64,000 bases of DNA from Alphaproteobacteria bacterium UBA3635 (GCA_002373935.1 DFKW01000004.1:27704-91703), one strand, 5' to 3'; positions 48,822 to 49,736 are shown, numbered from the stretch's first letter. Program-made: numbers and translations. The notes: generated by a model from the sequence alone, not told the origin.

Positions 48822-49736
48822 ATGGAACATAAAATCAATATTGAATATATCAATAAAAAATATGACGCGTCCGGCATTTCATACGATGTCGTGTTGGTTG
48901 GTATTTTGGTTGGGCAAATTTTTATACCAAATGGCACGGATAAAAAAATCGTGCTGACACTGAATCACGGTATGCAACCTTTTTATATAAACAAAATTGC
49001 AACAGATATTTGTAAAAAATATCGCGATGGTATTATTGTGCAAATGCCACGAAAAAAATTTGAATTTAACCTGAAAGATTCTGGGGACAAACCGGCAAAA
49101 CCAAGTATCGAAGAATCATGGACACGATATTATAATTTTATAAATCAATGTATGGGAAAATATCGCGAATTCAAATCCAAAAAACGGGTTTGTATTGATT
49201 TAGTGTTGAAAAAAAACATATCCAGACATGATGCGTTTATGACAATATGGACGTTGTTAAAAAAATATCCGGTGATTAAAACAACTTTTTCAAAAAGTGA
49301 TAACGCACCGATACAATTTGATGAATCTATGTGCGTTGATGATATTAAATCGATTTTGGCCGAGATACTGTCCAAGAAAAAACAACCTGTGCGGGCGGCG
49401 GCAAATATAAACACACCCGTTGTTGAGAATACAAAACCGGAACAAATTGTCGCGGAAAAAAACGACGAAATAACGCCTGTGACGGATGATGCGCCGCACG
49501 CGACACATATTGACCCCATGATTATTGCCAAGGCCGTGACCGTCACAATGAATAAAAAACAAACCGTGGATGCGGCAAAACAACGCGCACAACAAATGGC
49601 AAACGGACAATATGTCGCGGTAAAGTTATTGGATGCGGATGGAAAATTTATTTGCAATATTTATCCGCAAGATATTGAAACAATTAGTGCGGAAAAGGCC
49701 CAACAATTTAACGCAATACTGCAAAAACAATATTAA
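48822..49736 (+). CDS. Hypothetical protein (304 aa) inserted between fabD and fabG, low-GC
   Basis: 4-bp gap after fabD. Lys-rich N half, Ala/Gln-rich C half. No recognisable motif. Confidence 0.5.
   Translation: MEHKINIEYINKKYDASGISYDVVLVGILVGQIFIPNGTDKKIVLTLNHGMQPFYINKIATDICKKYRDGIIVQMPRKKFEFNLKDSGDKPAKPSIEESWTRYYNFINQCMGKYREFKSKKRVCIDLVLKKNISRHDAFMTIWTLLKKYPVIKTTFSKSDNAPIQFDESMCVDDIKSILAEILSKKKQPVRAAANINTPVVENTKPEQIVAEKNDEITPVTDDAPHATHIDPMIIAKAVTVTMNKKQTVDAAKQRAQQMANGQYVAVKLLDADGKFICNIYPQDIETISAEKAQQFNAILQKQY

Follow-up and report, generated by a model that had tools for sequence, protein, structure and literature searches.

The gene clusters of type II fatty acid synthesis (FAS II) are among the best-charted bacterial operons, and fabD and fabG are normally contiguous in them. 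In a 64,000-nucleotide stretch of DNA from Alphaproteobacteria bacterium UBA3635 (GCA_002373935.1 DFKW01000004.1:27704-91703; the whole stretch is called the window below), an open reading frame (ORF) of 304 amino acids (aa) is wedged between the two. This locus raises the question of whether such an ORF, which we call X, is a gene at all and, if so, how it came to be there and what its product might do. Family hidden Markov models (HMMs) identified both flanking genes, so that the region reads as follows (ACP, acyl carrier protein; dN/dS, ratio of nonsynonymous to synonymous substitution rates).

47942-48817, plus strand: fabD, malonyl-CoA:ACP transacylase, the upstream neighbour (TIGR00128, 288.6 bits against a cutoff of 260.9; Pfam Acyl_transf_1)
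48822-49736, plus strand: X, gene for a 304-aa orphan protein (ORF listing with an ATG start; orthologues; dN/dS)
49754-50482, plus strand: fabG, 3-oxoacyl-ACP reductase, the downstream neighbour (TIGR01830, 299 bits against a cutoff of 297.75; Pfam adh_short_C2)

An earlier note on this DNA had described X as a low-GC ORF with no recognisable domain, lying 4 bp behind fabD and 17 bp before fabG. The ORF listing placed it on the plus strand exactly where that note had seen it, and spacers of 4 and 17 nt were measured in the window sequence. The GC content of X is 0.365 (0.348 at third codon positions, GC3), compared with 0.482 (0.428) for fabD and 0.487 (0.502) for fabG. As for domains, no Pfam family matched X at E ≤ 0.1, and the NCBIfam scan returned SurE alone, with a score of 14.7 bits (cutoff, 230). 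We conclude that X is a genuine gene encoding a protein. The chance of a stop-free frame of 304 codons at this composition, calculated from base frequencies, is ~4e-10; the frame is unbroken in more than 25 diverged orthologues, and dN/dS is below 1 in most pairs. From its physico-chemical values, the product is predicted to be a soluble, basic protein (isoelectric point, pI, 9.15).

Relatives of X were sought among 5.8 billion proteins and, by an exhaustive HMMER scan, among 1.84 billion cluster representatives. The former search returned six relatives with identities from 92% to 34%, to which a profile search added one; the latter returned 27 proteins, 25 of them with E < 1e-10. Most members are 285-340 aa long, and the identities of the orthologues span 92% to 24%. 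The family had no match in PHROGs, PADLOC, INPHARED phages, PLSDB plasmids or IMG/VR, and its profile had none among PDB sequences. When 30 members were compared with Pfam at E ≤ 1, nothing beyond scattered noise was obtained, with no match to fab, ACP or Acetyltransf_* families. The ACP phosphopantetheine motif is not conserved, as DS[LIM]x occurs in 6 of 40 full-length members and is absent from X of the window. Two members (P0007 and P0008) matched ThiI_fer at residues ~81-131 (best E 6e-4); these matches fall below the cutoff and span a disordered junction between two predicted domains (D1 and D2, below), and we regard them as spurious. We found no description of genes between fabD and fabG in the literature. 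The earlier note had allowed that orthologues of X might prove to be conserved widely in fab clusters and to have a known role; instead, they belong to one narrow clade, and no role emerged for them.

The synteny comparison that the earlier note had proposed was carried out on loci of this lineage (numbered L001 to L026), which derive from four rumen metagenome-assembled genomes (MAGs; 'uncultured proteobacterium RUG…'), GCA_045131685.1, and ENA, JGI and Logan metagenome contigs. In all family members with a readable context, X lies between fabD and fabG, and all of these come from one lineage; on the short contigs L011 and L025, X has no flank or only one. The genes form a co-directional array, metG-(ORFs)-queH-(ORFs)-fabD-X-fabG-mnmG-(ORFs)-ileS-nth-pheT, and X was present in 18 of the 18 loci for which the content of each junction was tabulated. 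One locus (L020) is 100% identical to the window. At the other extreme, the most divergent branch of X (24% identity) has the same fabD-X-fabG arrangement. X is thus restricted to one clade of Gram-negative proteobacteria that are uncultured and have been recovered chiefly as rumen MAGs. Its arrival between fabD and fabG would date to the common ancestor of this narrow lineage, and X would have been inherited since. Additional ORFs were observed beside X at two loci, one of 245 aa between fabD and X in L014 and one of 89 aa between X and fabG in L018.

The earlier note had also suggested structure prediction. With 7 sequences, AlphaFold2 (AF2) gave a mean predicted local distance difference test score (pLDDT) of 65, which rose to 80.4 with 30 diverse sequences (model m1e9893f478b1). 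In the latter model, the pLDDT exceeds 90 in the domains and falls below 50 in the linker (aa 188-226), and the predicted template modelling score is 0.36, as expected because the layout resembles beads on a string. The predicted parts are listed below.

48840-49067, plus strand: D1 (aa 7-82), alpha/beta, with four strands, a helix and two strands (AF2 pLDDT ~90)
49122-49382, plus strand: D2 (aa 101-187), alpha/beta, with three strands, a helix, two strands and a helix (AF2)
49383-49514, plus strand: linker (aa 188-231), predicted disordered and rich in Pro, Thr, Glu, Lys and Val
49515-49730, plus strand: D3 (aa 232-303), conserved C-terminal beta-alpha-beta-beta-alpha domain of ~70 aa (AF2 pLDDT ~90)

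Near-invariant residues are found mostly in D3 (D231, P232, K237, A256, Q257, A260, K268, D271, Y281 and P282), and little is conserved in D1 and D2 beyond two hairpin glycines and one lysine. The linker varies from 26 to 62 aa among orthologues, as judged from alignment gaps and domain boundaries, and the pI of aa 187-229 is 5.0. A natural minimal form is provided by the streamlined relative L026, where metG and queH are directly adjacent, the post-metG ORFs are absent and the remaining slots are minimal. This locus keeps X, cut to 151 aa, with D1 joined directly to D3; although the sequence of D1 is plastic, its HMM still matches this form (P0029 of L026) with E 1e-11, and the D2 HMM has no match in L026. 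Because X of L026 consists of D1 and D3 only, D2 and the linker appear to be dispensable and D1 plus D3 to be the core. A different composite was seen at L025:8-670 (P0023, 220 aa), where YadA-head-like 'ATAFG' repeats precede an X linker and D3, and fabG is the next gene. Its start lies 8 nt from the scaffold edge, so that the N-terminus is unreliable and may be an assembly chimera, and we did not retain it as a YadA-like/D3 fusion; if genuine, it would place D3 on an adhesin-like module.

No convincing structural neighbour of these domains was obtained. Foldseek comparisons with the PDB and BFVD gave no significant match, and the weak local ones were to GNAT-type cores and tiny uncharacterised phage proteins (TM ≤ 0.3, E ≥ 0.01). 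We discarded the GNAT lead, as no acetyltransferase HMM matched and the CoA motif Q/R-x-x-G-x-G/A was present in 0 of 40 full-length members. Since D1 and D2 have almost no conserved polar residues, no family matches were found and the CoA motif is lacking, X gives no sign of catalysis and is likely to be non-enzymatic. HMM cross-searches for an internal triplication of D1, D2 and D3 gave marginal signals: the best z was 4.6, obtained from non-independent sequences, and single scores lay below shuffled maxima. No signal peptide or membrane anchor was apparent, as no member of the family has more than 12 consecutive uncharged residues within its first 45 aa; KD19 exceeds 1.6 in only 7 of 40 members, and the segment concerned is a beta-hairpin in the AF2 model. 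X is accordingly predicted to be cytoplasmic unless it is exported by a non-Sec route.

We compared the rate at which X evolves with that of its neighbours. Across the lineage, fabD is 81-96% and fabG 85-97% identical (79-100% over all loci), whereas X drops to 24-40% identity once the flanks fall below about 92%. In terms of Poisson-corrected distances derived from the identities, X evolves ~9 times and D3 ~4 times faster than the neighbours, and dN is lower in D3 than in D1 and D2. In diverged pairs, the dN/dS of X is 0.25-0.5, compared with 0.05-0.15 for fabD, fabG and queH; close pairs span 0.15 to about 1.0, and two very close pairs have values near 1. Positive selection was considered and rejected, as no pair or domain had a dN/dS robustly above 1. 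These results indicate that X is under purifying but relaxed selection and is not decaying, because dN/dS is mostly below 1 yet above the values of fabD, fabG and queH. The identity of X is only loosely correlated with that of its flanks (Spearman 0.43), and some pairs are incongruent: X is 51% identical between L001 and L008 with flanks at 79%, and 36% identical between the window and L001 with flanks at 92%. The broad agreement of X with its flanks, together with the lack of matches in the phage, plasmid, virus and defence collections, speaks for vertical inheritance and against a foreign origin.

The earlier note had further proposed that X exemplifies a recurring pattern of unknown genes appended directly behind conserved ones, and that it has the same character as the ORFs behind metG and mnmG. 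The pattern itself recurs, both in the window (behind virD4, rlmN, metG, fabD and mnmG) and in the slots of the lineage. Apart from X, the window has the following ORFs of this kind.

9868-11127: ORF without a family after virD4, 419 aa, 3 nt behind virD4
39361-40104: ORF without a family after rlmN
45705-47347: three ORFs after metG, of 117, ~186 and ~235 aa (pI 9.7-9.8; GC 0.34-0.37)
52237-52695: ORF without a family after mnmG, 152 aa (GC 0.288, GC3 0.18)

The likeness to the post-metG ORFs holds for composition (low GC, basic, hydrophilic) but does not extend to relatedness. In hhalign comparisons, the X domains matched the junction ORF families with a probability of at most 1.5%, and the X domain HMMs matched X orthologues alone in 275 kb of lineage DNA. 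A hairpin-helix-strand unit that seemed by eye to be shared among X, u117, u208 and u250 was likewise abandoned after hhalign all-versus-all gave at most 1.5%. The low GC of X is common to all fast-evolving ORFs of this locus; because the gene is ancestral to the clade, its low-GC, basic composition is best read as weak constraint under AT-biased mutation and not as a recent foreign origin.

Nor is X like the other junction ORFs in distribution. Among the 18 tabulated loci, the metG-queH slot holds 0-3 ORFs, the queH-fabD slot is empty in 9 and occupied in 9, the fabG-mnmG slot is filled in L017 only, and the mnmG-ileS slot ranges from 281 to 2835 nt; the occupancy of the slots differs between genomes that share at least 80% identity in their core proteins (window 43710-56453, L001-L026). 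The 152-aa ORF has a homologue by sequence in one relative, L016 (68% identity, not directly abutting mnmG), and recent acquisition is much more probable for this ORF than for X. Thus, although X and the 152-aa ORF both stand behind conserved genes, as the earlier note had it, X alone among the junction ORFs is fixed, and the others are polymorphic and unrelated to it. The overlap of the 152-aa ORF with the mnmG stop codon, reported in that note as ATGA, reads GTGA in the sequence, and there is a possible alternative ATG start at 52249, in frame. The post-metG ORFs evolve fast (40-76% identity where present), and in L003 and L004 the same site holds different ORFs of 162 and ~240-260 aa with no detectable similarity.

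These slots might be filled and emptied by recombination. Between L001:5230-10031 and L006:3922-9346, the nucleotide identity forms a mosaic in which blocks of 82-84% alternate with blocks of 95-99%, which shows that the lineage undergoes homologous recombination. The 5' half of fabD forms a divergent block that abuts an additional 187-aa ORF of L006 in the queH-fabD slot, and this suggests that junction ORFs spread through flank-mediated recombination. No insertion scars were seen at the boundaries of occupied and empty slots. In the same pair, dS is 0.017 in X and 0.16 in the flanks, and we therefore considered a sweep of an X allele; this idea was dropped, since a sliding-window profile revealed general mosaic recombination that is not specific to X.

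We also examined the signals from which expression of X may be predicted.

47884-47911, plus strand: sigma-70-like promoter, TTGATT-16 nt-TATAAT, in the queH-fabD spacer (consensus scan, 10/12 matches)
48809-48812, plus strand: Shine-Dalgarno (SD) sequence GAGG for X, inside the last fabD codons (…AAA TTA GAG GTT TAA), 9 nt before the ATG of X
49744-49747, plus strand: SD sequence GGAG of fabG, within the 17 nt that separate fabG from X (read from the sequence)

The promoter-like site is kept in all five loci compared (the window, L001, L005, L006 and L008), and where the queH-fabD slot is filled, it stands upstream of the slot ORF. It is the likely promoter of a fabD-X-fabG(-mnmG) transcription unit. 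The arrangement of GAGG, stop codon and ATG at the fabD-X boundary is kept in 17 of the 17 loci inspected. At the other end, only 1-2 nt separate the stop codon of X from the ATG of fabG in L014, L016, L017 and L024, so that the translation of fabG would be coupled to that of X there. No credible terminator was found between fabD, X and fabG in the window sequence. Co-transcription of X with fabD and fabG, which the earlier note had surmised, is well supported by these signals though not proven, and the same may be said of translational coupling.

We regard X most favourably as a clade-specific, vertically inherited, non-catalytic tethered adaptor that is made together with FabD and FabG, and we put this explanation at about an even chance of being correct. 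X would be transcribed from the fabD promoter and translated by coupling to fabD, through the SD sequence in the last fabD codons, so that it would be produced constitutively alongside FabD and FabG. D3 may bind a conserved partner within the bacterium; the linker, being flexible, may give the plastic N-terminal part (one module or two) access to a second target that is less constrained. An adaptor fits best because the conserved, polar-rich D3 contrasts with N-terminal modules that are plastic in sequence, constrained in fold and carried on a tether. If X is such an adaptor, its preferred partner might tentatively be sought, on context, in the FAS II/ACP machinery, because the position of X is invariant. 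However, several points weigh against an adaptor of this kind. Adjacency to fabD and fabG is a weak guide in an array that mixes the unrelated metG, queH, mnmG and ileS, and an identity of 24-40% for X beside neighbours at 80-92% is unexpected for a core metabolic accessory. Furthermore, domain loss and a variable linker are more typical of proteins that face a host or the environment, and the organism has a chromosomal VirD4-type coupling protein.

The last points lead to the rival that survives best, which we consider unlikely but worth weighing, namely that X is an exported effector acting on a host or the environment. It would leave the cell by a VirD4-dependent type IV or a type I route, with D3 and the tail recognised by the export machinery and the N-terminus contacting a host, possibly a rumen protist. 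The relevant genes of the window are the following.

7591-9864: chromosomal VirD4/TraG-type coupling protein, 757 aa, among housekeeping genes (T4SS-DNA_transf, 185.7 bits)
23329-27800: TolC/HlyD/MacB set

The extreme divergence of X relative to its flanks, the places where allele and flank trees disagree, the loss of a domain and the changing linker length would all suit an effector, as would the lack of a signal peptide or transmembrane segment in X. The last 20 aa have a mean net charge of +2.0 over the family, and the combination of a variable N-terminus with a conserved C-terminal domain and tail recalls bipartite signals of type IV secretion systems (T4SS). Rumen Rickettsiales-like MAGs are also known (PMC10847448). 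However, no pair has a dN/dS robustly above 1; the C-terminal charge is inconsistent, from -2 to +4 across members and about -1 in the last 25 aa of X of the window (hand count); and D3, unlike shared secretion domains, occurs on no other ORF in the 275 kb of lineage DNA. The family has no eukaryote-like domains, a preprint on rumen-ciliate symbionts does not cover this lineage, and virD4 was seen by itself and not as part of a full T4SS, no virB genes being found in the window.

A narrower form of the adaptor explanation is less probable still. In it, X is a basic, non-catalytic accessory of FAS II, built from degenerate GNAT-like cores, that would bind the acidic ACP, acyl-ACP, FabD or FabG and thereby channel or regulate acyl flux. 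The invariant fabD-fabG position with coupling signals on both sides, the retention of X in the streamlined L026, where other junction ORFs are absent, and the pI of 9.15 are consistent with this idea, and weak local matches to GNAT cores recurred in two independent structure libraries. These matches are nevertheless poor (E ≥ 0.01, TM ≤ 0.3), and no acetyltransferase HMM or CoA motif accompanies them in the 30 and 40 members compared. Moreover, conservation exceeds 80% in FAS II partners but is ~30% in D1 and D2, and the neighbourhood is mixed in function. We would give the same low standing to a bolder version, in which X is a FAS II-coupled ACP- or acyl-ACP-binding adaptor with a new combination of folds, recruited once and now indispensable; this would explain why X alone among the junction ORFs became fixed and why D1 and D3 survive in L026. 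Of similar weight is the idea that X is the founding member of a class of VirD4-exported effectors with a new C-terminal recognition domain.

Two further readings are essentially excluded. X could be mobile or selfish cargo (left behind by a phage or plasmid, belonging to a toxin-antitoxin pair, or serving in defence), given its GC below that of the flanks and the other junction slots that are gained, lost and moved via homologous recombination, but this is very improbable: X has no match in the phage, plasmid, virus and defence collections searched (PHROGs, PADLOC and IMG/VR included), all genomes of the clade carry it at one and the same site, where neither a partner gene nor repeats nor an integrase lie close by, and low GC fits relaxed constraint with AT-biased mutation. 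Equally negligible is an ORF without function, a spacer whose frame stays open solely because ribosomes must read through it to translate fabG, which the tight coupling at both ends and the two very close pairs with dN/dS near 1 might suggest, since most pairs have a dN/dS of 0.15-0.5, three domains are predicted to fold confidently with residue patterns that co-vary across 30 sequences, D3 has near-invariant residues, and the frame is intact in all orthologues at a divergence where neutral ORFs would have decayed.

The remainder of the window bears on the organism and on the wider array. LptD/F/G, TolC and an LpoB-like protein mark a Gram-negative cell, and gidB-parA-parB are present. The closest solved structure to FabG is 3f9i, by a small margin over other matches, which we take to be FabG of Rickettsia prowazekii. 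fabG is followed by mnmG instead of the usual acpP-fabF, and no acpP-like ORF was seen anywhere in the window. MnmG (50591-52240) has 549-551 aa throughout the lineage, and a typical MnmG has approximately 620-630 aa. The mnmG-ileS spacer is the most variable slot; it contains tRNA-Thr(CGT) at 52741-52816, then a strong bidirectional terminator hairpin at 52861-52884 and a 98-aa minus-strand ORF at 52901-53197, of which L001 has a minus-strand counterpart of the same size (10231-10527). Between nth and pheT, an EcoRI-like adenine methyltransferase and a GmrSD_N/HNH endonuclease were observed at 57444-59559; as pheT directly follows nth in L001 and L023, this insert of the window appears to be a strain-specific restriction or defence islet. 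Finally, tRNA-Cys (27952-28025) lies within the 5' part of a 425-aa RecF/SMC_N-like ORF (27843-29120). The start of this ORF is probably over-extended, and the true start would lie past tRNA-Cys, because the Pfam match begins at residue 67.

Nothing found here overturns established knowledge. X represents either an accessory of lipid synthesis that is new and specific to this lineage, or a constitutive interaction protein within a housekeeping operon, and its family, with three confidently modelled domains that lack a structural neighbour, is a good target for structural and interaction work. The locus also illustrates how a lineage takes in new genes, as every junction of the essential array can hold fast-evolving ORFans, which would be gained, lost and exchanged by flank-mediated recombination, X apparently being the one that became fixed.

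We compared X with known systems that share part of its layout. D1 and D2 have in common with the GNAT fold three antiparallel strands that lead into a helix and a further strand; however, with TM at most 0.3, no N-terminal arm and no pyrophosphate-binding motif, X does not appear to be a member. In TonB and in FtsN and other SPOR-type proteins, as in X, a variable spacer rich in Pro, Lys and Glu leads to a C-terminal alpha/beta domain of ~70 aa, but X has no N-terminal signal or anchor, and no member matched the TonB_C or SPOR HMM. The Bartonella Beps, whose BID domain and charged tail exemplify a bipartite T4SS signal, likewise combine variable N-terminal modules with a conserved C-terminal domain and tail, and a VirD4-type protein is present in the genome with X. 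X differs from them in that D3 is a beta-alpha-beta-beta-alpha domain and not a helical bundle, in that there is one protein only, and in the inconsistent charge of the tail.

The closest likeness is to the ORFans found in housekeeping operons of compact, host-associated proteobacteria. Like these, X is confined to a narrow clade, has a low GC content and a basic product, evolves fast and rides on an operon of essential genes whose neighbouring junctions also hold ORFans. Most ORFans, however, are patchy in distribution and poorly structured, whereas X has a fixed site, is under purifying selection and has a well-folded three-module model with a conserved C-terminal domain. X is therefore a new orphan family within the known phenomenon of lineage-specific ORFans on housekeeping operons, and the lineage that carries it offers a useful natural system for studying how orphan genes become fixed.

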